Shown here: positions 2,313 through 32,810 of the stretch, one piece after another | How the letters are laid out: the number at the start of each line of letters is the position of its first letter | Numbering within the stretch: the first letter of the stretch is position 1 | From: a virus | Lineage: Duplodnaviria; Caudoviricetes | Length of the DNA: 64,000 bases | IMG/VR virus record: IMGVR_UViG_3300042363_000275 | Coordinates: 1 to 64,000 of that record | Strand: one strand, 5' to 3' | Translations under genes and position numbers: made by a program | Notes under the pieces: generated by a model | What the model was told of the DNA's origin: nothing | Databases searched by the model: none | The model's input: only the letters and a program-made list of their open reading frames with translations

Positions 2313-2389
2313 TGGTGCCTTCGGACAGATTCGAACTGTCACTGATTAGTTCCTAAGACTAACGCCTCTGCCAGTTGGGCTACGAAGGC
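2313..2389 (-). tRNA. tRNA-Leu(TAG) with short variable loop
   Basis: TTAGT-CT-TAG-GA-ACTAA; TTCGAAT T-loop; A73-CCA. Confidence 0.9.
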
Positions 2390-2395
2390 AAAATT

Positions 2396-2485
2396 TGGCG
2401 GAAGCGGAAGGATTCGAACCTTCGTGACCCGTTAAGATCTGCTTGTTTTCAAGACAAGTGCAATCATCCACTCTGCCACGCTTCC
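2396..2485 (-). tRNA. tRNA-Ser(TGA)
   Basis: CTTGT-CT-TGA-AA-ACAAG; long variable arm; G73-CCA. Confidence 0.95.
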
Positions 2486-2808
2486 TAATTGTTTAGTTTA
2501 TTATATTCCTTCCTGACGAACGAGTCAAGTGCATCTACAATCTTTCTAATTCTATATATTTGATTACCACCAGTTGATTCCAAAGTTTCTGCTTTTAAAG
2601 CATGCAGCATCATCTCAAGATCGTATCCTGAGATTTCTTTTGCTCTAATTTTTACTAATAGATTTCTGTATGCTTTTGCCTGTGGATATACTTGTGAGTT
2701 GTATGAGAAGCCAGATGCTGATGCACCTTTGTTTTCCAACGCATCACATAGCATATCTACATGTGGTTGAAGATCTTCGAATTTAAATTTTTTCGGAGCA
2801 TCGCTCAT
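2485..2808 (-). CDS. Hypothetical protein
   Basis: ORF track; ATGA overlap. Confidence 0.6.
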   Translation of the reverse strand: MSDAPKKFKFEDLQPHVDMLCDALENKGASASGFSYNSQVYPQAKAYRNLLVKIRAKEISGYDLEMMLHALKAETLESTGGNQIYRIRKIVDALDSFVRKEYNKLNN

Positions 2809-2987
2809 ACTTCAGATTTAACTGGACCCCACTTTCCAACAGGGCACTTTGTATTTGCCCATTGTGTTTTAAGTTTAAGAATACAGCCACACTTTCTGCA
2901 AACACTGAGTTTGTTGTGTTCGCAGGTTGCGCAGATATTCATTCGTTCCTGTTGAATCTCTGGTGTTGTTCTTAAATTGTCAAACAT
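2805..2987 (-). CDS. Small Cys-rich protein (DUF6171-like)
   Basis: RxxICxxC..CxxCGC..CPxGKW pattern. Confidence 0.6.
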   Translation of the reverse strand: MFDNLRTTPEIQQERMNICATCEHNKLSVCRKCGCILKLKTQWANTKCPVGKWGPVKSEV

Positions 2988-3002
2988 AACACTTCTCTAA
3001 AT

Positions 3003-3076
3003 TGGAGCGGGATGAGAGAATCGAACTCTCGACCGAAGATTGGAAATCTGCTGTTTTACCATTAAACTAATCCCGC
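3003..3076 (-). tRNA. tRNA-Gly(TCC)
   Basis: TT-TCC-AA loop; T73-CCA. Confidence 0.95.
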
Positions 3077-3080
3077 ATTC

Positions 3081-3165
3081 TGGTGCGACTGGTCGGACTC
3101 GAACCGACATTCCTAACGGAGGCAGATTTTAAGTCTGCTGCGGATACCGATTTCGCCACAGTCGC
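3081..3165 (-). tRNA. tRNA-Leu(TAA)
   Basis: GCAGA-CT-TAA-AA-TCTGC; long variable arm; CCA. Confidence 0.95.
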
Positions 3166-3170
3166 AAAAA

Positions 3171-3749
3171 TTACTTCAACGACTCCATAATGTCATTGTA
3201 TACTTGATCTTGCTTGTCATGTACAAGTTCCCAAATATTCTCAGACCAAAGTTCATTATAAACTTCACTCTGTTCTTCTTGATCAAGTTCCTTGAGCGAC
3301 GGAACCATCTGCTCCATCATCTCTGTGATTTCGCCGTCTTCACCCCACTCACATCCATCAATCATTCCATCTTTGTTGTAAACATATACACCAAAGAAGT
3401 TTGGCATTTCGTCTTCATACATGACGGACGCGATGAAGTCGGGGTCAACAGAAACAATCTGCTCAAAGAGCCACTCTAATCCTGCTTGCGGAAAACTCCA
3501 AGCAGAAACTGTATTGAAATAATCTTCACCACGATCTTCGAAGTAACACCACTTCGGTCCAATGTTTTCTAAATTCCAGTCATACTTATCTGTAATTTCT
3601 GGATCAAGACCGAAGATGTCACTGAACCACTCATAAATGACTGCTTTGTCAGATCCAGTTCGAACGCGCGAGTATAGTTCTTGCAACTTTGCTTTGCCAG
3701 CATCGTTGAGTTTCTCAAAACGAACATGAGTGTTTACATGATTTGCCAT
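3171..3749 (-). CDS. Hypothetical protein, YubB/DUF1281 ferredoxin-like resemblance
   Basis: [18 protein letters not shown] resembles the YDW..NWGTKW..TAWSPP motif. Confidence 0.55.
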
Positions 3750-3767
3750 AATATATCCTCAATAAAA

Positions 3768-3844
3768 TGGTCGGACAGAGAGGATTCGAACCTCCGACCC
3801 TCTGCTCCCAAAGCAGATGCACTACCAGGCTGTGCTACTGTCCG
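3768..3844 (-). tRNA. tRNA-Pro(TGG)
   Basis: TCTGC-TT-TGG-GA-GCAGA; CCA. Confidence 0.95.
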
Positions 3845-3855
3845 ATTGTTTATAT

Positions 3856-3884
3856 ATTATACTATATCTAGTCACAAAAGTAAA
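3856..3884 (-). promoter_or_regulatory. Internal early-type promoter (TTTACT-17-TATAAT)
   Basis: Hexamers with 17-nt spacing upstream of tRNA-Pro. Confidence 0.7.
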
Positions 3885-3885
3885 G

Positions 3886-3962
3886 TGGTGGGACCACTTG
3901 GACTTGAACCAAGAATCAACAAATTATGAGTTTGCTGCATTAACCAATTATGCTATAGTCCC
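3886..3962 (-). tRNA. tRNA-Ile2(CAT), lysidine type
   Basis: CT-CAT-AA loop; overall resemblance to E. coli ileX-type tRNA; CCA. Confidence 0.8.
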
Positions 3963-3967
3963 AAGAG

Positions 3968-4058
3968 TGGTCCTTGTCCTGGGTAACGATCCCAGCCGTG
4001 AACGGTAATCTGCCGCTAAAGAGTTTATAAATCTCTCCTGCACCCTGTGCTGACAAGG
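3968..4058 (-). tRNA. Atypical tRNA with TAT anticodon, long variable arm and 3-nt D-loop
   Basis: Acceptor CCTTGTC/GACAAGG; TT-TAT-AA loop; T-arm CTGGG-ATCGTTA-CCCAG; A73-CCA. Confidence 0.7.
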
Positions 4059-4075
4059 ATATTGTTCAATAAAAA

Positions 4076-4151
4076 TGGCACGCTCGGCAGGATTCGAACC
4101 TGCGACCCCAAACTTAGAAGGTTTGTGTTCTATCCCCTGAACTACGAGCGC
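4076..4151 (-). tRNA. tRNA-Arg(TCT)
   Basis: CAAAC-CT-TCT-AA-GTTTG; CCA. Confidence 0.95.
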
Positions 4152-4155
4152 AAAA

Positions 4156-4243
4156 TGGCGGAAGGCAGTGTACTCGAAACACATTCCTGTTTAGGAACAT
4201 TTTGTTTAGCAAACAAATGTGAACCCTGTTCACTTTACCTTCC
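4156..4243 (-). tRNA. tRNA-Ser(GCT)
   Basis: TT-GCT-AA loop; long variable arm; G73-CCA; D-arm GTGAAC-AGG-GTTCAC. Confidence 0.9.
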
Positions 4244-4247
4244 AATA

Positions 4248-4324
4248 TGGCGACTCGGATGGGACTTGAACCCACGACCTCATGCGTGACAGGCATGTGA
4301 ACTAACCAACTGTTCTACCGAGCC
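4248..4324 (-). tRNA. tRNA-Asp(GTC)
   Basis: CATGC-CT-GTC-AC-GCATG; CCA. Confidence 0.95.
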
Positions 4325-4328
4325 AAAA

Positions 4329-4403
4329 TGGAGCAGGATATCGGATTCGAACCGATGGCATTCTCGTTGGCAACGAGACATTCTACCACTGAATTAATCC
4401 TGC
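4329..4403 (-). tRNA. tRNA-Gly(GCC)
   Basis: TT-GCC-AA loop; CCA. Confidence 0.95.
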
Positions 4404-4407
4404 GAAA

Positions 4408-4481
4408 TGGTGGATCCAAAAGGTAACGCTCCTTTGTCTTTCGATTATCAGTCGAATGTACTTCTTTTGTACTATGGATCC
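4408..4481 (-). tRNA. tRNA-Ile(GAT), atypical D- and T-loops
   Basis: TTCGA-CT-GAT-AA-TCGAA; D-loop AAAAGAA; T-loop AGCGTTA; CCA. Confidence 0.85.
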
Positions 4482-4487
4482 GAAATG

Positions 4488-4564
4488 TGGCACCCCATGA
4501 AGGACTTGAACCTCCGACCTCGATGTCCGTAGCATCGCGTTCTAATCCACTGAACTAATGAGGC
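4488..4564 (-). tRNA. tRNA-Arg(ACG)
   Basis: CGATG-CT-ACG-GA-CATCG; CCA. Confidence 0.95.
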
Positions 4565-4650
4565 GTAATAAATCCCAGTCGATCCACCCTGGATCTTCTC
4601 TCGCTTCTGGGTGCAGCGCTACCGATTAACGATGGTAGAACCGTCGCGAT

Positions 4651-4725
4651 TGGTGCCAAGTGTTGGTATCGCGCCAACCTATCAAGTTCTTCAGACTTGC
4701 GCTAATCTATCTCAGCTAACTTGGC
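4651..4725 (-). tRNA. tRNA-Phe(GAA), atypical T-loop
   Basis: CAAGT-CT-GAA-GA-ACTTG; T-loop CGCGATA; CCA. Confidence 0.85.
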
Positions 4726-4842
4726 GAATTCTTTTACAGGGCAGACCTTTGTTACCTGTCTATGTGCGTACGACACCAACTGCGTTGTTAAGTTATCGCA
4801 ATGTGGAAGGGTAATTACTCCTATTCATTGCTTTTTACAAAT

Positions 4843-4917
4843 TGGAGTGACAGACTGGACTCGAACCAGCATGAAGAAGTTTTGCAGACTTCTGCCTGAC
4901 CTTTCAGCCACCGTCAC
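4843..4917 (-). tRNA. tRNA-Cys(GCA)
   Basis: GAAGT-CT-GCA-AA-ACTTC; T73-CCA. Confidence 0.95.
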
Positions 4918-4926
4918 ATGTTAAAA

Positions 4927-5002
4927 TGGTAGAAACAGTGAGACTCGAACTCACGATAAACACCGTATGAAGGTGGCGCATTAGCCGCTATGCTATGTTT
5001 CT
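4927..5002 (-). tRNA. tRNA-Met(CAT), elongator type
   Basis: TT-CAT-AC loop; paired 1:72; CCA. Confidence 0.8.
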
Positions 5003-5006
5003 ATAT

Positions 5007-5081
5007 TGGGGTGATGACTGGGACTCGAACCCAGATATACCAGGATCACAACCTGGGGACTTACCATTAGTCAACCATCAC
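5007..5081 (-). tRNA. tRNA-His(GTG)
   Basis: CCAGG-TT-GTG-AT-CCTGG; C73-CCA. Confidence 0.95.
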
Positions 5082-5086
5082 ATAAT

Positions 5087-5189
5087 TGGTGGACTGTGTG
5101 GGTAACACTACCACAGTGGCTAGTTTGTTTCTTACAGCCCATTCTATCTTGTTATAGGGACTACCAACCTTCACTGTCTAACTCAGCCC
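5087..5189 (-). ncRNA. tRNA-like RNA with alanine-type acceptor (G3:U70, A73, CCA) and no canonical anticodon loop
   Basis: 5' GGGCTG pairs with 3' CAGTCC-A-CCA; T-arm-like TGTGG..CCACA; spaced like the neighbouring tRNAs. Confidence 0.6.
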
Positions 5190-5195
5190 AAAGAA

Positions 5196-5254
5196 TGGCG
5201 GCATTCACTTTCGTCTTCCGTGCAGAACCAAGCGCACGGACCTGGCTGAATGCC
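5196..5254 (-). ncRNA. 59-nt armless tRNA-like RNA ending in GCCA
   Basis: 8-bp stem GGCATTCA/TGAATGCC plus G-CCA; internal stem TCCGTGC/GCACGGA. Confidence 0.6.
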
Positions 5255-5258
5255 TAAT

Positions 5259-5404
5259 TGGTGTGACAGGGTAGGAGTCGAACCTACATAACCATAGACC
5301 TGCGCAGGTCATTTTGGTGCCAGGCTCACTGACTGGCGTGACTCTCCAAGAGTTTATTCGACATAACTCTATTCTTCACCGCCTGCACATTGTACAAACA
5401 TCAC
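5259..5404 (-). ncRNA. 130-146-nt multi-hairpin tRNA-like RNA with canonical T-arm and CCA
   Basis: GTAGG-TTCGACT-CCTAC T-arm; ..TGTCAC-A-CCA end; internal hairpins AGAGTT/AACTCT, GCCAG/CTGGC, GACCT/AGGTC. Confidence 0.6.
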
Positions 5405-5409
5405 ATAAT

Positions 5410-5496
5410 TGGTGGACAGGGCTAGATTCGAACTAGCGTAACCCATTGGGTGATTGATTTACAGTCAATTGGATTTAACCACTCTCCCACCTGTCC
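5410..5496 (-). tRNA. tRNA-Tyr(GTA)
   Basis: ATTGA-CT-GTA-AA-TCAAT; long variable arm; CCA. Confidence 0.95.
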
Positions 5497-5501
5497 AAAA
5501 A

Positions 5502-5575
5502 TGGCTGAGGGACCTGGACTCGAACCAGGACTCTCTGGGTCAAAGCCAGATGATCTGCCATTAATCTATCCCTCA
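5502..5575 (-). tRNA. tRNA-Gln(TTG)
   Basis: TCTGG-CT-TTG-AC-CCAGA; CCA. Confidence 0.95.
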
Positions 5576-5582
5576 AAAAAGA

Positions 5583-5691
5583 TTTGCTGCTTGCACTCTA
5601 TGCTATCGACTCAACTGCTTTACAATTGATTACAGTTTATTGTGATAGTTACATAACGCTCGATCTAGCCTCTGGGCTTACAAGCAACAAA
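5583..5691 (-). ncRNA. Candidate structured ncRNA between tRNA-Val and tRNA-Gln
   Basis: 13-bp closing stem TTTGTTGCTTGTA/TGCAAGCAGCAAA with two G-U pairs; inner stems AGCC/GGCT, ATCGA/TCGAT, AACTG/CAGTT. Confidence 0.45.
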
Positions 5692-5693
5692 AT

Positions 5694-5769
5694 TGGTACT
5701 CGGTGACGGGTTCGAACCGCCGACATTCTGGATGTAAACCAGACACTCTACCAACTGAGTTAACCGAGC
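5694..5769 (-). tRNA. tRNA-Val(TAC)
   Basis: TCTGG-TT-TAC-AT-CCAGA; CCA. Confidence 0.95.
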
Positions 5770-5773
5770 AAAA

Positions 5774-5848
5774 TGGTGGACCGTGGGAGAATCGAACTCC
5801 CTTCTCTGCGATGCAAACGCAGCATAATACCCAGTATACTAACAGCCC
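5774..5848 (-). tRNA. tRNA-Ala(TGC)
   Basis: TT-TGC-AT loop; G3:U70; A73-CCA. Confidence 0.95.
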
Positions 5849-5853
5849 AAAAA

Positions 5854-5928
5854 TGGCTGGCGCGGGTGGGATCGAACCACCGACAGGCTGATTAACAGTC
5901 AGCTGATCTACCGCTGATCTACGCGCCA
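5854..5928 (-). tRNA. tRNA-Asn(GTT)
   Basis: GCTGA-CT-GTT-AA-TCAGC; CCA. Confidence 0.95.
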
Positions 5929-6036
5929 AAATAGCTGCGGTGTAAGTAACCACCGCTCCTGCTCTTTTCTTTAGGTAGAGTCACACACCGTATCCCATTA
6001 TTAAGTGCGGGAGTTCTCACACTATGCATTAGGAAA

Positions 6037-6110
6037 TGGCATCCCGCCACAGAATCGAACTGCGACCAAGAGTTTTGGAGACTCGTATGCTACCACTACA
6101 CCAGCGGGAA
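6037..6110 (-). tRNA. tRNA-Trp(CCA)
   Basis: CT-CCA-AA loop; G73-CCA. Confidence 0.9.
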
Positions 6111-6122
6111 ACAATCACAAAA

Positions 6123-6196
6123 TGGTAGGAGTAGAGGGAATCGAACCCTCGTCGAAGGATTAAAAGTCCTATGCTAGACCTTCCAGCTATACTCCC
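6123..6196 (-). tRNA. tRNA-Lys(TTT)
   Basis: CT-TTT-AA loop; CCA. Confidence 0.95.
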
Positions 6197-6214
6197 AAAA
6201 AACATAACAAAAAT

Positions 6215-6290
6215 TGGTGGGTCTAACAGGATTCGAACCTGTATCAAACTGGGTAAGAGCCAGATATAATTGCCATTATACGATAGACCC
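6215..6290 (-). tRNA. tRNA-Lys(CTT)
   Basis: CT-CTT-AC loop; CCA. Confidence 0.9.
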
Positions 6291-6295
6291 GAAAT

Positions 6296-6370
6296 TGGCG
6301 TTCCCTACGAGATTCGAACTCGTGTACTCACCGTGAAAGGGTGACATCCTGACCGCTAGATGAAGGGAAC
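6296..6370 (-). tRNA. tRNA-Glu(TTC)
   Basis: TCACC-CT-TTC-AC-GGTGA; CCA. Confidence 0.95.
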
Positions 6371-6380
6371 ATAAAAACCA

Positions 6381-6462
6381 TATTGAAACACACTAGAAGT
6401 AATATTAACGACCTTTACTTTTATCACTGGGACGGTCAAGCAGGGTCTAATGTGCTTCAATA
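6381..6462 (-). ncRNA. Candidate structured ncRNA between tRNA-Thr and tRNA-Glu
   Basis: 17-bp closing stem TATTGAAGCACATTAGA/TCTAGTGTGTTTCAATA with two G-U pairs; inner GACC/GGTC. Confidence 0.45.
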
Positions 6463-6537
6463 TGGTGCCTCCACTCGGAATCGAACTGAGTTCTCAGGCT
6501 TACAAAACCCGTGCATCACCATTTATGCTTTGAAGGC
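6463..6537 (-). tRNA. tRNA-Thr(TGT)
   Basis: CGGGT-TT-TGT-AA-GCCTG; CCA. Confidence 0.95.
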
Positions 6538-16580: not shown

Positions 16581-16607
16581 AAAAAAAGGGGGACCCGAAG
16601 GTCCCCC
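16581..16607 (-). terminator. Rho-independent terminator with CUUCGG tetraloop
   Basis: GGGGGACC-TTCG-GGTCCCCC followed by T7. Confidence 0.9.
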
Positions 16608-16891: not shown

Positions 16892-17941
16892 CTATTGATT
16901 TTTATAGATATATTCTACAAATTGGCTCGCCGACTTTTTCCAGTTCTTATCTTTTACGCTCAGATGAGTTGAGCCGCGATCAACTTCGAGGGCGAAACAA
17001 ACAGCAGTAGACAAATCTACATCAACGAACCCATTCACACCATTTTGAATTTGATCAATTGGTCCTGTTACTGGGTAAGCAGCTACTGGTGTTCCGCATG
17101 CCATCGCTTCAAGAATCACGATTCCATAAGTGTCTACTCTACTTGGAAATACAAACACATCTGCGAGTTGATAACATCTTGCCAACTCTTCACCGAATTT
17201 ATATCCAAGAAATCGAATGTGTGGATATTTCTTTTGCAATTTCTTTCTATATGGTCCATCACCGACGATAACTTTAATAACTTCTACCGATGGCGCAACG
17301 CAACTAGAAACATCTAATTCACAAAATGCATCTAGATTCTTTTCTTTACTCACACGCCCAGCGTATAATAGAACAACTCTGTTGTCCTTGTATTTGTCAT
17401 TGAATCGAAAATGGAAGTCATATCCCTTATCAAGAACAACTGAGTTCCAATTTGAATTTTCTTTCGCGTTAGATTCAGAGGAACACATCACATACTTTGC
17501 GTTCTTATGAAACCAGTTGAAGTACCATTTAGTCCACGAAACTGGAACACCGAACATCTCATTAAAGAACTCTGGGAACTTCGTATGGTAAGAAGTCGTA
17601 TACTGTATTCCAAGTTTCTCAAGAACTCGTTTGGCTTGTAGACCAAGAATGCCTTCCGTGGCAATGTGGTACTTTGTGTCATATCCTAGCATATGCCAAT
17701 GCTCATCTCGCGTTTCAATTATTTTAAACATCTTCTTGTAACTGCAAAATGGAAGCGGCACTTCTTTATAGAATGGCACTTTGATATTGCTGAATAATCC
17801 TGGATGAATAACATCAACTGTTATTTCAGGAGGCAAATTTGCAATAATGTTCTTATAGGTGGTTACAACACCATTTACTTGCGGTTCCCAAGCATCTGTA
17901 ATGAGAACTATTTTCGTCCGAGCCATTCTATAATCTCCCAT
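16892..17941 (-). CDS. GT4 (GT-B) glycosyltransferase, Agt-like DAG glycolipid synthase candidate
   Basis: ITDAWEPQVNGVV N-terminus; GRVSKEKN; FPSRVDTYGIVILEAMACGTPVAAYPV. Confidence 0.85.
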   Translation of the reverse strand: MGDYRMARTKIVLITDAWEPQVNGVVTTYKNIIANLPPEITVDVIHPGLFSNIKVPFYKEVPLPFCSYKKMFKIIETRDEHWHMLGYDTKYHIATEGILGLQAKRVLEKLGIQYTTSYHTKFPEFFNEMFGVPVSWTKWYFNWFHKNAKYVMCSSESNAKENSNWNSVVLDKGYDFHFRFNDKYKDNRVVLLYAGRVSKEKNLDAFCELDVSSCVAPSVEVIKVIVGDGPYRKKLQKKYPHIRFLGYKFGEELARCYQLADVFVFPSRVDTYGIVILEAMACGTPVAAYPVTGPIDQIQNGVNGFVDVDLSTAVCFALEVDRGSTHLSVKDKNWKKSASQFVEYIYKNQ

Positions 17942-18651
17942 GTTCCGTCATAATGTTCAACTAATGCTGTGCAGGATTCTACCCAGTCTCCATCGTTCAT
18001 GTATTCAATGCCGTTGATTGTTTTAATCTCTGCTCTATGAACATGACCGCAGATTACGCCATCGGCTTTTTGCTTTTTGCAATAATCTGTAATTAGATCT
18101 TCGAAGTTGTTTACATACGAAACCGCTTCTTTCGTTTTGTTCTTAAGATACTGGCTTAAACTCCAATGTGGCATGTTAAACCAGTTACGAACTTTACTTA
18201 CAAGGACATTTAATTTTAACAAAACATTATACAGCATGTCGCCAAGATGGTATAGCCACTGAAGTTTGGTTCTTAATACACCATCGAATAGATCGCCATG
18301 AATCACCATATAGGTTTTGCCATTGACACCCTCATGGCGGCATTGATTCACAAGATCGATGTTGCCAAAATGAATGTCGAATGGCAATAGATCGCGAAAT
18401 GCATCGTCGTGATTGCCAACAACATAGGTGACTTTGGTATTGTTCTTTGCGGCTTTGAGAATTTTACGAATCACATCAGTGTGTGATTGCAGCCAATAGA
18501 ATTTTCTTTTTAACCGCCAGCCGTCGATAATATCGCCGACGAGATATAGATTTTCGCTTGAGTTATTTTTCAAAAAATCGCATAGCAAATCGGCTTTACA
18601 TCCCCGAGATCCTAGATGGACATCGGAAATAAAGATTGATTTGAATTGCAT
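17908..18651 (-). CDS. plcP: PlcP-like metallophosphoesterase (family often annotated LpxH-like)
   Basis: FISDVHLG..LVGDIIDGW..GNHD..IHGDLFD..CGHVH..NDGDWVESCTALVE. Confidence 0.75.
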   Translation of the reverse strand: MQFKSIFISDVHLGSRGCKADLLCDFLKNNSSENLYLVGDIIDGWRLKRKFYWLQSHTDVIRKILKAAKNNTKVTYVVGNHDDAFRDLLPFDIHFGNIDLVNQCRHEGVNGKTYMVIHGDLFDGVLRTKLQWLYHLGDMLYNVLLKLNVLVSKVRNWFNMPHWSLSQYLKNKTKEAVSYVNNFEDLITDYCKKQKADGVICGHVHRAEIKTINGIEYMNDGDWVESCTALVEHYDGTWEIIEWLGRK

Positions 18652-18676
18652 TGGAGACTCCCAGAACTGGAGTCAG

Positions 18677-18710
18677 TATATAGCGCAAAAATATTACGAT
18701 TAGATTAAAA
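18677..18710 (-). promoter_or_regulatory. Putative Pho-box promoter
   Basis: TTTTAATCTAATCGTAAT, 10 nt, TATATA; same geometry as E. coli pstS but degenerate. Confidence 0.35.
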
Positions 18711-18829
18711 TTCGGTTCATCTTCCCCCCACTGCGCAATGGGTGCTAGATTGTACTTTTCTAGCGGGATCCTATAAAACTCAGCGCCGTGCGCATGACCT
18801 CTACACCGAAAGGTTGAGGCGAGTGTTGT

Positions 18830-20876: not shown

Positions 20877-20880
20877 AGGT

Positions 20881-21684
20881 TTATATAGCTCCGATGTTTT
20901 GTAACAACAAATTTGTATGTTGTTTAAACCTATTGTTGTTGGAGTACAATTTCCAGTTGTCATTAATCAACAATTCACCGATTAGATCTATCATTTCTTT
21001 TGGTGTGGAAAATTCGCGTATTAAATTATTAAAATAGTTTTTATTGGATCGTTCGCTAATAACACATTTGCTATTAGTTAATGCATAAAAAATTCTAGTT
21101 TGTTGTTGCCTAGATTCAGCGTCACTTGGGTTTAAATTTAATATAATCTTGCTTCTAGCAATATATTTATCTAAATTATCACCCCAAGCGTTATGGGCAT
21201 AAACAAATGACGACTTCAAAACTGTATCGAAATGAGACATATATGAATTATAAAATGCGTCGTAAATAAAATTCATTCTTCTTGGAAACATAGTGCCATA
21301 AAATAAAACATCTATATCTGGATTAGTTGAATTTTTAATTTTTTCTAATGATTTAGAATATAAACACGGTTTATGTTTAGCATTAATACCATATTGCTTC
21401 AATATTTTAATATTATCTAGATCATAATCCCAAACTTCATCTGCTATTTTTAAATTGTCAACAATGGTTTCAATAAAATGCATATTTGACTCTATCAGTG
21501 GCTCTAATTGGTAGATTATTATTCTTTTATTTCCCACTAGTGGTTTAAATTCATCAATAGAATGTTTAAAATGTGAACCAACAATAATTGATGCATCATC
21601 AATATTTTTCGCGTAATTGTCATCTAGCATCTTGGCTATATCAGCCCAATGATCTCCATAAAAATTAGTCCATAGATATTTCAT
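20881..21684 (-). CDS. CgeB/Glyco_trans_1_2-like glycosyltransferase-related protein
   Basis: DVLFYG..RR..SKIILNL..RIFYAL..CVISE; AT-rich. Confidence 0.55.
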   Translation of the reverse strand: MKYLWTNFYGDHWADIAKMLDDNYAKNIDDASIIVGSHFKHSIDEFKPLVGNKRIIIYQLEPLIESNMHFIETIVDNLKIADEVWDYDLDNIKILKQYGINAKHKPCLYSKSLEKIKNSTNPDIDVLFYGTMFPRRMNFIYDAFYNSYMSHFDTVLKSSFVYAHNAWGDNLDKYIARSKIILNLNPSDAESRQQQTRIFYALTNSKCVISERSNKNYFNNLIREFSTPKEMIDLIGELLINDNWKLYSNNNRFKQHTNLLLQNIGAI

Positions 21685-21695
21685 TTATACATCTC

Positions 21696-23414
21696 TTAAT
21701 CAAAGAAGAAAAGATGGAACAATCTGGAATTTATTATCGATTGACCAAAATATTCATTAGCAGCATGTATACACTTTGCATCAAAAAGAACCAATCGATT
21801 AAATACATTTCCAGCCGTATCTACAAGTTCAAATTTAGATCTATCGTAGTATCCGCCATTAAATGCATATTCTGCTCCTACATCAGTTTCACATCTGGCA
21901 CCAGTCGCTTTGTGCGCGAATAATGATGTTCCGCTTTGGTATGGTGCGCCAGGAGTTAAGTAAATCATTCCAGCCCAAGTTTGGTTGTCCCAGTGATACA
22001 CTAACGCATCTTCTGGTGTGCAATACTGGAACACACCATTCATTCCATGCTCATCCCACACAGTAATCTTTTTACCAATAATCTCTTCAAACCTCTGACG
22101 CATCTGTGGCGTTTTGTACGACTGAGTTCTTTTACCCTTGTAGTATCGCAGATCCTCAGTGTATTCTAATTGCAAGGCAAAGTTTCTAACCAGTTCTGGG
22201 TCATCATAAAAGTCATCAACAATAAACATTCGCTTCGTGTTTTCTTTCTTTACAGCAAATACAGTTCCAAGATGAAGCGTTGTATACTGCGCAGTCAACT
22301 CACTTGCAATTTTATGCAAGTATTGCGGGTGTGTACCAGTGTCATGATAAAGGTTTTGATTAATGAGAAAGAAAAACTCTGGGAAAGGATTCTTCCGTTC
22401 TGGTTGCATCAGTTTTTCTGTGCATTGAACCATCCTTCGATAATCCATCAACTCCCAATATGTTTCGGCGAGATTAACAAGGTGGTCGTTTCTTGGTGGG
22501 GCAAACTGTTCTGATTCTTTGTAGAATTCAATTGCCTTGTAATGCTCGTCTAGAAACCTATATGCATTACCAATACTGTTCATAGCAAAGTAAGCCATTT
22601 CGTCAATATTTTTTGCTTTCTTCGTATTGCTATAATCGTGCGTATAGTCTAAGATTTGTTGAAAATAAAATATGCAGCGGCGAGCATATTCCTTCTGGTG
22701 AATGTCTTTTAGTGGGAAAAAGTTACCACGATAGCAATCTTCATACGACTTACCAATATACCAAAAATGATACAGGTCAGTCAACATTGTTCCTTCGCGA
22801 ATTAATCGCTCTTCTAACTTTAACGCATCGCTAACATATTTCGTTGGAACGGTATAACTTTCTCCCTGCATCACACCGCCAATTAATCTAAACTTATATC
22901 CTAGATTTTTGCGTTCAAAGTTTTCACCAACACCTTCTATGTCTAGATAGATGGTCTCATGTGCTGGATCGTGATTGAAACGCCACGGTAACTTGGCGTT
23001 CCAGATCCATGCTCTGAAATAGATTAGAGGGTCAGCAATAGATGTTACATGAAATGCTTGAGTAGAATGATTGTCAAACGGCGACCAATCAAAGTCACTA
23101 TCGACGATTAATGTCTCGTCGCAATCCATCTTCATAATCCAGTCACAGCCATGTTCTGTTTGGCGGCACTTCTGTAAGAGATGGTCACGATTCCAACCGA
23201 AGTTTACCCAGCCTTCTTCAACTTGGTAAACAAATCCTGGGATATTGTACTTTTCCTGCCATGCCTTTACAACTTCTGGTGTTCCATCCGTAGAACCATT
23301 ATCCTGTAGAATCCAGTAATCGATATACGGAGCAACAGATTCTAGCATCTTCCCGATGTTCTGCGCTTCATTCTTGAACATCGAGATCATTACAATTTTA
23401 GTTTTCTTGTTCAT
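21696..23414 (-). CDS. GT2 glycosyltransferase + TPR-like region + DUF6445-like 2OG-Fe(II) oxygenase fusion
   Basis: KNEAQNI..DNGSTDGT..MDCDE; C-terminal IVDDFY..HWD..FNRLVLFD..HAA..RLFHLFFFD. Confidence 0.75.
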   Translation of the reverse strand: MNKKTKIVMISMFKNEAQNIGKMLESVAPYIDYWILQDNGSTDGTPEVVKAWQEKYNIPGFVYQVEEGWVNFGWNRDHLLQKCRQTEHGCDWIMKMDCDETLIVDSDFDWSPFDNHSTQAFHVTSIADPLIYFRAWIWNAKLPWRFNHDPAHETIYLDIEGVGENFERKNLGYKFRLIGGVMQGESYTVPTKYVSDALKLEERLIREGTMLTDLYHFWYIGKSYEDCYRGNFFPLKDIHQKEYARRCIFYFQQILDYTHDYSNTKKAKNIDEMAYFAMNSIGNAYRFLDEHYKAIEFYKESEQFAPPRNDHLVNLAETYWELMDYRRMVQCTEKLMQPERKNPFPEFFFLINQNLYHDTGTHPQYLHKIASELTAQYTTLHLGTVFAVKKENTKRMFIVDDFYDDPELVRNFALQLEYTEDLRYYKGKRTQSYKTPQMRQRFEEIIGKKITVWDEHGMNGVFQYCTPEDALVYHWDNQTWAGMIYLTPGAPYQSGTSLFAHKATGARCETDVGAEYAFNGGYYDRSKFELVDTAGNVFNRLVLFDAKCIHAANEYFGQSIINSRLFHLFFFD

Positions 23415-24751
23415 ATTTTTACTGGGTGTGGTCTACGCTTATCAGACTTAATGGCAACTAGCCAAGCATCTGTGATTGCAATATTATCGCTTCGTGGTTC
23501 CCACCAAAAGGTATCAAGTTTAAATTCCTGAAACCGAATCTTGTCGTTACGAATAAACATTGCCTTATCTTTTCTGGTGTAATACCAGAAGCAGTTCTCG
23601 TTCCAGTAACTCACATGCGTTGGGTCTTGAAATGCGCCGCGACCATCTGTTGAAGGCACCTGTATGAATACCCAACCATCATCAGCAAGAACACGGTAGA
23701 TCTCAGCCATAATCTTGTGTTTATCGTTAAGATGCTCTATAATATGCGAAGCGTTGATTACACCAACGCTGTTATCTGGAAGCGGAATGCCATTATTAAG
23801 GTCAGCGGTAACATTACCATCTTCTAAATCAATATTGATATTGCATCCAGCCCGAGGATTAATTCCTCCGCCTAATTCTACAATATCCAACCCTCTGTCT
23901 TTCGCATCTTTACACGCAAGATCCCATGCATACTGCTTAAACAACTCTCTAGTTGTATCTTGAATTGCTTGATTTCTTTCTAACCAAGTATTGTTACCAG
24001 TAATCCTGTAAACATACAGGGGCTTATTGATATGATGCATCTTGGTGTTCAAGTATGTGCGAATAACCAATTCATGATCATCGCATATATCTAGATTTAC
24101 ATTATGACCACCAATGGACACATAAACACTTTTACGCCATGCTCGAACATGGTCAGGCGCATACCAGATATACGCCATGCTGTGGCTTGTTGGTGCAAAA
24201 GAATTCATTGAGTAATGTTCTTTGCCACGCCACATGACTTTTTTATAAGTCCACCCATAATGAGCATCGTATGGTGTAAATTCATTGTTTACATGATAGG
24301 TGATACTATCACTGTATACAAATCCAACAGTAGGATCTTGAAATGCTTTGTATAATTCTTCTAAGCAATCTGGTGTGAGCATATCATCATGATCGACCTC
24401 AACAAGAACATCACCTGTTCCTAGATGAAAGGCTTTGTTCTTATTGAAGCCGATTTTAGAATTGATCTCATCACTCACAACAATTTTAATGCGCTCATCA
24501 GACTTAATGGCAACTAGCACTGGGTAATTTACTAGAGCATCCAAACCACCTTCCACACCATTCAAATAAATCACCCACTCCCAGTTCTCATAAGTTTGAG
24601 CAACAAGACTCTCATACAAGTCACCCAGAAACGAGTTCTTCAGGTGAGTGGGTGTTATAATGCTAAATTTCACAGTTCGCAGACTCCTGCCGAGCAAGCC
24701 AATTCTTTTGCTGAAGTTGTTGTATCTGTTTCTTCCATAAACTCTACCCAA
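23411..24751 (-). CDS. GT2 glycosyltransferase + class I SAM-methyltransferase-like fusion
   Basis: FSIITPTH..EVDHDD; ELGGG..ASHIIEHL..VPSTDGRGAFQDPTH; true start may be downstream of the ORF start. Confidence 0.75.
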   Translation of the reverse strand: MGRVYGRNRYNNFSKRIGLLGRSLRTVKFSIITPTHLKNSFLGDLYESLVAQTYENWEWVIYLNGVEGGLDALVNYPVLVAIKSDERIKIVVSDEINSKIGFNKNKAFHLGTGDVLVEVDHDDMLTPDCLEELYKAFQDPTVGFVYSDSITYHVNNEFTPYDAHYGWTYKKVMWRGKEHYSMNSFAPTSHSMAYIWYAPDHVRAWRKSVYVSIGGHNVNLDICDDHELVIRTYLNTKMHHINKPLYVYRITGNNTWLERNQAIQDTTRELFKQYAWDLACKDAKDRGLDIVELGGGINPRAGCNINIDLEDGNVTADLNNGIPLPDNSVGVINASHIIEHLNDKHKIMAEIYRVLADDGWVFIQVPSTDGRGAFQDPTHVSYWNENCFWYYTRKDKAMFIRNDKIRFQEFKLDTFWWEPRSDNIAITDAWLVAIKSDKRRPHPVKI

Positions 24752-30776: not shown

Positions 30777-32810
30777 CTATTTAGAAGTGGCACGATAAAC
30801 TCCGTCCCAATTCACAGGCGGTTTGCCATCCATTCTCTCGTCCATCATCTCATAGTATTTAGCCATTTCACCATCCCATAACACTTTCATTGCAGGGACC
30901 AAATTCCTAGCAATTTTCCAGTTACCTGCACGATAATGTAACAGGAAGTTTTCGTGCATATAGAGAGCTGATTTGTCGTCATCAGGCGCGATCGTGAAGA
31001 TCTTTACAGGTTCAGTTTTACCCTTCACCGCAATTAGATCTAATTCGATAACTGGGAACTCACCCTTCACATACTCTGCAGTTTTAGGACCAATGACAAT
31101 TTTAACACCATAAGGTTTAGATTGACCTTCGAGGCGAGCTGCTAGGTTAACTCCATCTCCCAAACAAGTGTAGTCAAACCTTTGTGTAGAACCCATATTG
31201 CCAACAACCACAGTATCGGTATTAATACCCAATCCCATGCCGAATGCTGGAACACCTTCTTTAGCAATTTCTTCATTGAATTTCTCCAGATCCTTGAGCA
31301 TTGCTAAACCAGTACGAACAGCATTCTTTGCGTGCTGTGCATCATCCAATGGTGCATTCCAAAATGCCATCTGAGCATCGCCGATATACTTGTCCAGCGT
31401 GCCTTGATTTTCAATAATCCTTGCAGTCATTGCCGTCATATAACGATTCATGATTGCAGTCAGACCTTGAACATTCTTGCCGTAGTGCTCAGAAATTGTT
31501 GTGAATCCACGCACATCAGTAAACATGATTGAAAGTTCACGTGACTCACCGCCGAGTGCAAGTAACTCTGGATTCTTTTGTAGTTTTTCAACCATAGCTG
31601 GTGAAAGATAAGTGCCAAACTGCTTCTTAATTTGTTGCTTCTGTAGGAACTCAGAAACAAACTTCACACCATAAGCATGAAGTGCAACAAGAATTAATCC
31701 TAAAGTAACAGCTGTTGGATCAAATAAGAACAACGAAGTCTTAAACGCATACAAACTATATGCTACACCAGAGCCAATTAGAATCACAGTTGATGCGAGT
31801 CCAACATAAACCCAACGCGATAGCCCTATTAGCAATAGACCAGCAAGTAAAAGTGCAAGAATTTCAAGTGACTCTGCATAATCTGGACGCTGAATGTTCA
31901 CGCCGTTAATCATCGTTGCCACAACAGCAGCTTGCATATCCTGCGGCATCACTGGACCAATTGCTGTCGGCACTGGGTTTGCTAAACCTGCTGCAGAAAC
32001 ACCAACGATAACTAATGCACCGTCAAATTTTTCTGGTAGATCTACCATCGAAACCTTTTTATTCTTTTGCGACCAGTCTACCCACACACGACCATAAGAG
32101 TCTGTTGATACTGGACCGAACTGTGGAATGCGCATTTTCTCAACACCAAACTCATTCAGTTTAACTTGAAAGTTTGGATCACCTGCCATCACACGGAGGA
32201 TTTCTAAAGATAGATGTGGATAAAGAATGCCATTAACAGAAACAATTAATGGCACTCGACGATTCACACCGTCAATTTCTGGAAGAGTGTGTGTTGCACC
32301 AACGCCTGCTGCAGCGTTTTCGAGTTCAGGAATATTCGCAATGATTCCTGGATACTGTAAAATCGTATCTTCGAACTCAGAACCAATAATTGCTGCGCCT
32401 GGATTTTTCGGCGAGTTCTTTGTTGCTGTTGATGGAACATTTGGAAGAATAACTGGTGCTTGTTGCATCACATCGAGTAATGCTTGGTCACCACCTAGAC
32501 GATCAGATTCTGGCATGAGCACATTGAAAACAACTAACCCTGCGCCCCGATTATAAAGTTCAGCAATTAAATTTGCATACACATCACGCTTAAATGGATA
32601 TTGCCCATACTTTTCCAAAGCAGCTTCGTCGATGTTTACGGTATAAACATTGTTTTCTGTTACTGGTTTGTTTGCAATAAGAGTATCAAAATATCGGAGT
32701 CGGACGGACTCTACGAATTGAGGGTCAGATACTCTGATAGATAATACTATAGCAAGAGTTAATAACGCAGTCCAAGCACTGAGTGCAACTTTATTCAATA
32801 ACTTTTTCAT
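30777..32810 (-). CDS. CHASE2-domain class III adenylate cyclase
   Basis: N-terminal TM; periplasmic CHASE2-like region; 3 TMs; MFTDVRGFT, DKYIGDA, FDYTCLGDGVNLAARLE. Confidence 0.92.
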   Translation of the reverse strand: MKKLLNKVALSAWTALLTLAIVLSIRVSDPQFVESVRLRYFDTLIANKPVTENNVYTVNIDEAALEKYGQYPFKRDVYANLIAELYNRGAGLVVFNVLMPESDRLGGDQALLDVMQQAPVILPNVPSTATKNSPKNPGAAIIGSEFEDTILQYPGIIANIPELENAAAGVGATHTLPEIDGVNRRVPLIVSVNGILYPHLSLEILRVMAGDPNFQVKLNEFGVEKMRIPQFGPVSTDSYGRVWVDWSQKNKKVSMVDLPEKFDGALVIVGVSAAGLANPVPTAIGPVMPQDMQAAVVATMINGVNIQRPDYAESLEILALLLAGLLLIGLSRWVYVGLASTVILIGSGVAYSLYAFKTSLFLFDPTAVTLGLILVALHAYGVKFVSEFLQKQQIKKQFGTYLSPAMVEKLQKNPELLALGGESRELSIMFTDVRGFTTISEHYGKNVQGLTAIMNRYMTAMTARIIENQGTLDKYIGDAQMAFWNAPLDDAQHAKNAVRTGLAMLKDLEKFNEEIAKEGVPAFGMGLGINTDTVVVGNMGSTQRFDYTCLGDGVNLAARLEGQSKPYGVKIVIGPKTAEYVKGEFPVIELDLIAVKGKTEPVKIFTIAPDDDKSALYMHENFLLHYRAGNWKIARNLVPAMKVLWDGEMAKYYEMMDERMDGKPPVNWDGVYRATSK

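Follow-up and report, generated by a model that had tools for sequence, protein, structure and literature searches.

A phage-borne plcP-agt gene pair with a Pho-box-like promoter, predicted to convert host membrane phospholipid to glycolipid

In bacteria, the genes plcP and agt, which code for a phospholipase C of the metallophosphoesterase type and a glycosyltransferase of family GT4, form an operon of the 'type 2' layout (Sebastian et al. 2016, PMC4796936), examples being PA3219-PA3218 of Pseudomonas aeruginosa (PMC8528852) and BCAL2364-2365 of Burkholderia cenocepacia (PMC13691135). Pho boxes control the bacterial operons. Of the pair, cultured phages yielded plcP alone, in pelagiphage Mosig (52% identical, adjoining pstS) and in Synechococcus phage S-SRM01. 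Here we describe a plcP-agt pair in the IMG/VR virus record IMGVR_UViG_3300042363_000275, of which positions 1 to 64,000 were analysed (hereafter the window). The parent record is 74,861 bp long, with a completeness of about 45% by CheckV, and its source is an uncultured, aquatic, lytic-type, T4-like phage; a megablast search with 8 kb of the window against isolate phages gave no match. The window is clearly a genuine phage genome. Its phage genes, all on one strand, include 24 tRNAs, ribonucleotide reductase, ThyX, primase, DnaB helicase, tail fibre, endolysin and virion proteins, and phage hallmark genes are located on both flanks of plcP-agt. The pair and its control region consist of the following elements.

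18651..17908, minus strand: plcP, an open reading frame (ORF) of 247 aa (protein P0002), a PlcP-family metallophosphoesterase and predicted phospholipase C
17941..16892, minus strand: agt, an ORF of 349 aa (protein P0001), a GT4 of the Agt/GTcp clade and predicted glycosyl- or glucuronosyl-diacylglycerol synthase
18693..18710, minus strand: Pho-box-like operator, TTTTAAT (18710-18704) and TCGTAAT (18699-18693), 11 nt apart, in the place of the -35 box
18675..18680, minus strand: -10 hexamer TATACT, separated by 12 nt from the second heptamer and adjoining the hairpin
18656..18674, minus strand: hairpin GACTCC-agttctg-GGAGTC, whose 3' arm holds the Shine-Dalgarno (SD) sequence GGAG, 4 nt before the ATG at 18651

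The phage pair has in common with the bacterial operon both protein families and the order plcP-agt; the genes overlap or adjoin, as they do in P. aeruginosa, and a Pho-box-like site precedes them. Its identities to the validated bacterial members (46-48% for PlcP and 38% for Agt) are within the range found among those members. It differs in that the phage proteins are trimmed, without the N-terminal extension of 12-60 residues and the C-terminal tail that bacterial PlcPs have, the phage copies form clades of their own, dagK is absent, and an SD-hiding hairpin is located beside the phage promoter. The Agt lineage of the window differs further from bacterial Agt by two short insertions and by DK in place of TR at the residues of the diacylglycerol (DAG) site. 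The overlap between plcP and agt is 34 nt if agt starts at the ATG at 17941. An alternative ATG at 17926, giving a protein of 344 aa, is preceded by a better ribosome-binding site (GGGAG, 8 nt before the ATG) and agrees with the N-termini of bacterial Agt; for these reasons the actual start is probably 17926 and the overlap 19 nt. Neither a signal peptide nor a membrane-spanning segment was predicted in P0001 or P0002.

P0002 matches Pfam Metallophos (4.7e-11) and is 47.7% identical to the orthologue of P. aeruginosa PA3219 (2e-81) and 46.3% to the Sinorhizobium meliloti orthologue (3e-90). The validated PlcPs of S. meliloti and P. aeruginosa are themselves 46.6% identical to each other, and the published identity among validated PlcPs is 46-47% (Jones et al.); the identity of P0002 to Escherichia coli LpxH is 18%. 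The named references were taken as the orthologue of S. meliloti SMc00171, the sole match in a 3.7-Mb record, and the PA3219-PA3218 neighbourhood of P. aeruginosa beside cyaB. Both reference records, L154 (CP090106.1, labelled S. meliloti 'pSymB', 3.7 Mb) and L155 (NZ_CP042268.1, a P. aeruginosa 'plasmid' with the plcP-agt1-cyaB neighbourhood), are 'plasmid' entries of PLSDB that look chromosomal.

The relationship of P0002 to LpxH is one of architecture. Both have a metallophosphoesterase core, an inserted helical lipid-binding cap and the same metal ligands, the cap insert of P0002 being 12 residues longer. The ligands D10, H12, D40, N80, H118, H203 and H205 of P0002 align with those of LpxH and are invariant in 35 homologues. 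An AlphaFold model of P0002 (predicted local distance difference test score, pLDDT, 81; predicted template modelling score, pTM, 0.75) gave LpxH for all of its top 25 matches in the Protein Data Bank (PDB), so that P0002 has the same lipid-handling architecture as LpxH; by sequence, the PDB search reached no better than E = 0.0095, to H. influenzae LpxH. On the LpxH equivalog models of NCBIfam, P0002 scored 41 bits against a cut-off of 134 (NF003743) and 33.8 bits against 190 (TIGR01854), while a genuine gammaproteobacterial LpxH scored 253 bits. In a tree of 60 rows, three LpxH-type proteins were separated with 99% support. The clade of P0002, composed of 29 viral rows and two rows from contigs of metagenome-assembled genomes (MAGs), was sister (91%) to the clade including the validated PlcPs. 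All of the PlcP-type signatures examined (GDIxDGW, GNHDE, HGDxFD, WSLSxYLKxKxKxAV and NxGDWVES) are present in P0002, which carries GDIIDGWRL, GNHDD, HGDLFD (followed by a longer insert), WSLSQYLKNKTKEAV, GHVHRAEI and YMNDGDWVESCTALVEH. The PlcP signatures are present in validated PlcPs and absent from LpxH of E. coli and Porticoccaceae; GNHD alone is not diagnostic, being found also in a Bacteroidota LpxH-type protein. Membership of P0002 in the PlcP family is thus well supported, and phospholipase C activity on phosphatidylethanolamine, phosphatidylglycerol and phosphatidylcholine is predicted for it.

The closest homologues outside IMG/VR (P0072, P0087 and P0103) are located on long contigs of 214-357 kb, which may be bacterial or belong to jumbo phages. 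PlcPs falling inside the viral clade, or nearly matching viral ones, were also observed on MAG contigs assigned to Coraliomargaritaceae (L084, 212 kb), Crocinitomicaceae (L085/L163), Henriciella (L110) and Rickettsiales (L118), the last being 93% identical to the PlcP of Mosig; these may be phage contigs binned in error, prophages or pointers to hosts. A homologue search with the Mosig PlcP found no Pelagibacter genome.

The second protein, P0001, matches both Glycos_transf_1 (2.6e-25, C-terminal) and Glyco_transf_4 (4e-07, N-terminal) of Pfam, and is therefore classified as GT4. According to Wei et al., the Agt/GTcp clade is less than 25% identical to other GT4s, includes Kordiimonas and Citromicrobium homologues as named members, and is characterized by a His-Asp dyad, in which Asp replaces the usual Glu of GT4, by the motifs GRVAXEKN and FPSXTDTFG, and by three DAG-site residues. 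The corresponding residues of P0001 are H119, GRVSKEKN (195-202), FPSRVD270TYG (265-273), E278 and W334. The diagnostic Asp is replaced by Glu (ETFG) in the GT4 paralogues that the Kordiimonas and Croceicoccus genomes also encode. The identity of P0001 is 37.9% with P. aeruginosa Agt1 (6e-76), compared with 26-28% for the GT4 paralogues. The Agt clade, including P. aeruginosa Agt1 and the GTs of Kordiimonas and Croceicoccus, was separated from other GT4 paralogues with 100% support, and 23 viral GT4s formed a single clade inside it with 99% support. In four bacterial genomes carrying the pair, the GT adjoining plcP was the best genome-wide match of P0001, by at least 28 orders of magnitude in E-value. 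Membership in the Agt/GTcp clade is well supported, from which an activity as monoglucosyl-DAG or glucuronosyl-DAG synthase is predicted. One viral protein of the Agt clade (L039:6749-7699) has Glu (WETFG) at the diagnostic Asp; for GTcp, the change D256E is known to decrease the activity by more than 90% (Wei et al.).

An earlier note on this stretch, made without database searches, had recognized an overlapping metallophosphoesterase and GT4 pair and had taken the two products for PlcP rather than LpxH and for an Agt-type GT4. Both ORFs are located where that note placed them, and the Pfam matches, the phylogeny and the Agt-specific catalytic Asp agree with its reading of the two families; grouping with true LpxH, which the note had named as a refutation, was not observed. 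It had also called for a survey of phage genomes. By a pattern-limited scan, at least 112 IMG/VR contigs, some of them 100-260 kb long, were found to carry a homologue. Where at least 1 kb was available 3' of plcP, as in 68 related IMG/VR loci, agt followed plcP directly in 43, usually with the same overlap, indicating that the pairing is not due to chance; pstS followed directly in 11, so that one or the other was present in 54 of the 68. Homology with L012, L015 and L019 is limited to 16908-18712 of the window, covering the promoter, plcP and agt, and the flanks differ: the pair moves among phages as a 1.8-kb cassette (about 16908-18712). Purifying selection on both genes is strong, with median ratios of nonsynonymous to synonymous substitution (dN/dS) among the relatives of the window of 0.04 for plcP and 0.10 for agt, and synonymous divergence (dS) up to about 1.7. 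In L011, L013 and L015, PlcP is 96% identical to that of the window and the neighbouring Agt just 73%, from which recombination seems to take place also inside the cassette.

The loci in which pstS follows plcP are L036 (6001-7797), L030, L031, L035, L037, L038, L040-L042, L057 and L063, and the promoter-hairpin layout is the same in all of them. Both flanks of L036 are syntenic with those of the cassette in the window, but pstS is located where the window has agt; the second gene of the cassette thus alternates between agt and pstS at one position. As in the case of pstS, phoA and phoH of cyanophages and pelagiphages, a host-derived Pho-regulon gene is carried with a Pho-box-like site by an aquatic T4-like phage, and plcP of the relatives stands in one block with pstS. 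The products of pstS, phoA and phoH act on external phosphate, whereas PlcP and Agt would draw on and rebuild the cell's own membrane.

For comparison of the upstream regions, a Pho-box score was set as two copies of TKTMAY at 11-nt spacing, with a maximum of 12; the operator of the window scored 11. A score of at least 11 was obtained for 17 of 47 dereplicated viral plcP upstream regions and for 14 of 265 control intergenic regions (Mann-Whitney p = 3e-9, a value indicative only because the pattern was widened after the data had been seen and the 47 loci are related to one another). Most of the control regions with this score belonged to plcP itself, its start having been called at a shifted position, and the test is conservative in this respect. 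Among the genuine control matches are one pstS of a phage (TGTCATAAAATTGTTAC) and a pair of class-3 lipase genes not far from plcP. L033, L045, L048 and L083 have Pho boxes that are canonical or nearly so, and alignment A2 of the lineage keeps TATA(A/C)T at the -10 position. Phosphate-starvation control of the cassette is plausible, and the earlier note's proposal of a link to phosphate gains support from this promoter and from the replacement of agt by pstS in syntenic relatives. Class-3 lipase genes (Pfam Lipase_3) were observed within 2 kb of plcP in L066 (7696-8472, minus strand) and L067 (3763-4524, minus strand), and also in L068, L069 and L083, two of them with Pho-box-like sites upstream; they may give phages another means of degrading lipid under the control of phosphate.

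The folding energy of the hairpin alone was not significant (z = -1.2). A stem of 6-8 bp including the SD sequence was, however, kept in all 16 lineage representatives, with compensatory changes in the outer pairs such as ATGCTCC/GGAGCAT, AGTGCTC/GAGCACT and TGTTCTC/GGGAGCA; stem pairs were counted by script because the MAFFT alignment A2 offsets the stems. The hexamer TATA(A/C/T)T was recognized in nine of the 16 representatives, and either stops 0-1 nt short of the 5' arm or extends 2 nt into it. In the T4 genes e, soc and 49, as McPheeters and colleagues are said to have described in 1986, hairpins hide the ribosome-binding site in read-through RNA, and a promoter inside or beside the stem cuts the hairpin short. 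By analogy, the cassette would share with these T4 genes a -10 sequence directly before the 5' arm of an SD hairpin, with translatable RNA arising from the proximal promoter alone; the T4 promoters reportedly are late promoters, whereas that of the cassette is apparently dependent on phosphate starvation. Two further elements bear on read-through.

19240-19212, minus strand: perfect sigma-70-type promoter TTGACA-17-TATAAT, inside the ORF 19454-19092 and upstream of the WYL_2-domain gene (19095-18841)
16588..16607, minus strand: intrinsic terminator GGGGGACC-ttcg-GGTCCCCC with a T run, the first one downstream

The promoter at 19240-19212 could supply read-through RNA into plcP. The terminator follows an ORF of 69 aa (16823-16614) with its own promoter, and is located outside the conserved cassette, as the stretch homologous to L012, L015 and L019 stops near 16908; it is likely to form the 3' end of read-through transcripts.

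On the basis of these observations, the cassette is probably a phage copy of the bacterial lipid-renovation operon, and would free phosphorus from the host membrane in response to phosphate starvation. PlcP would act as a cytoplasmic Mn-type metallophosphoesterase that removes the phosphate head group of host glycerophospholipids, leaving DAG, and Agt would transfer glucose or glucuronate from a UDP-sugar to this DAG, so that the membrane could be refilled with phosphorus-free glycolipid and the envelope would stay intact until lysis. The Pho-box-like direct repeat in place of the -35 box, as a putative site for PhoB, would tie expression to phosphate starvation of the host. Transcription starting 6-8 nt after the -10 sequence would remove the anti-SD 5' arm and yield a translatable transcript; only such transcripts, being without the 5' arm, would therefore be translated, and read-through from upstream would stay silent. 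As the net effect, phosphorus of membrane lipids would be directed to nucleotide and DNA synthesis of the phage. Mining of membrane phosphorus while the envelope is intact is the best-supported purpose that we can infer.

Several points weigh against this proposal. PlcP frees phospho-head groups, not free phosphate, and host phosphatases would still be needed. For every phage copy, enzyme activity, lipid change and expression are predictions from sequence. The cap region of the PlcP model is of low confidence (pLDDT 44-66). In P0001, the DAG-site residues T162 and R163 of GTcp read D171 and K172, and the third, W320, is kept as W334; in validated Agt1 the pair is R-K, with Lys second as in P0001, and other members of the clade have S, G or T before R. 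The half-sites of the window, TTTAAT and CGTAAT, are degenerate with respect to CTGTCAT, and the consensus may not be the PhoB site of the host; the post hoc widening of the Pho-box pattern and the relatedness of the 47 loci count here as well. Neither pstS nor phoH is present in the 74.9-kb record, about half of the genome lying outside the record. In addition, the reference sequences of SAR11 HTCC7211, Phaeobacter MED193 and Agrobacterium were outside the comparison set, and the bacterial rows in the trees are biased by the search method, for which reason neither a donor nor a direction of transfer can be named.

The same two enzymes might serve mainly to alter the envelope, by blocking superinfection or re-adsorption, by changing a receptor, or by stabilizing the membrane in the long latent period of starved cells. 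Published work indicates that lipid make-up alters phage attachment and the outcome of grazing, the yield of head groups in place of free phosphate fits this explanation, and agt is kept in 43 of the 68 loci though it adds nothing to phosphorus release itself. The replacement of agt by pstS at the same locus in close relatives and the Pho-box-type promoter point instead to phosphate economy, and a main benefit through the envelope appears rather unlikely, although the benefits for envelope and phosphorus are mutually compatible. It is very unlikely that the pair acts on a target other than lipid, modifying sugars of nucleotides, DNA or surface glycans together with three further glycosyltransferase-like genes 3-6 kb upstream (20881-24751). 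A sub-threshold match of P0001 to 'GT4-conflict' (23 bits against a cut-off of 26) can be cited in its favour together with these neighbours, but the cassette travels without the upstream GT genes, P0001 falls inside the Agt clade with the specific Asp signature, and the defence models of PADLOC gave no match for P0001 or P0002.

Action of the pair on lipopolysaccharide (LPS), with a true LpxH of lipid A synthesis and a glycosyltransferase of the LPS core, would agree with the automatic annotation as 'UDP-2,3-diacylglucosamine diphosphatase / LpxH', with the LpxH-like fold, and with two virus surveys in which viral lpxH (K03269) is listed under LPS biosynthesis. A true LpxH was rejected on the scores below both family cut-offs, the low identity, the 99% split in the tree and the PlcP-type motifs described above. 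A homologue of P0002 with 45-55% identity is present in 145 of 401 sampled alphaproteobacterial genomes (one unpublished genome, G244, counted), and alphaproteobacteria generally use LpxI, not LpxH. The LPS explanation is accordingly highly improbable. The chance that both genes are recent host-derived passengers without any role in infection is close to negligible: the mosaic, variable nature of the genome region would allow it, but it is contradicted by the selection observed across phage lineages, and both the viral clades of the two proteins and the number of viral contigs with a homologue stand against it.

Our full-text literature search, with most subscription journals outside its reach, found no description of a virus-encoded PlcP or Agt, of the pair in a virus, or of a phage function that draws on and rebuilds the membrane of the host, in line with the earlier note, whose author knew of no such phage module. 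The assignment as PlcP corrects an error of routine annotation, by which 'lpxH' in catalogues of auxiliary metabolic genes is counted as LPS synthesis. If lipid renovation by phage is real, an internal source of phosphorus, the host membrane, is added to the genes for external sources, pstS, phoA and phoH; viruses would then change the lipid composition of the cells that they infect in phosphorus-poor lakes and oceans, and the cassette would add to the pools of glucuronosyl- and glucosyl-DAG measured in phosphorus-poor waters. The promoter and hairpin, if functional, would tie phage gene expression to the nutrient state of the host despite pervasive read-through. The module is compact and widespread, and its plcP half stands beside pstS in a phage under culture, Mosig. 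It is quite conceivable, though short of probable, that lipid renovation constitutes a widespread class of phage auxiliary function, in which hundreds of aquatic T4-like phages carry a starvation-gated cassette of Pho box and hairpin for conversion of phospholipid to glycolipid, feeding both virus production and the glycolipid pools of phosphorus-poor waters.

Other features of the window are as follows.

2313-6537, minus strand: tRNA array of 24 tRNA genes
20881-24751, minus strand: three consecutive glycosyltransferase-type genes
30777-32810, minus strand: cyclase gene, 677 aa

Of the genes at 20881-24751, one has a weak match to Glyco_trans_1_2, another codes for a GT2 carrying TPR and DUF6445, and in the third a GT2 is joined to a methyltransferase; 20877-21685 is missing from L005 and L007, which are near-identical phage contigs. 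Methylophage Melnitz and pelagiphage HTVC008M encode adenylate cyclases that are distant relatives of the cyclase, at 39% identity.

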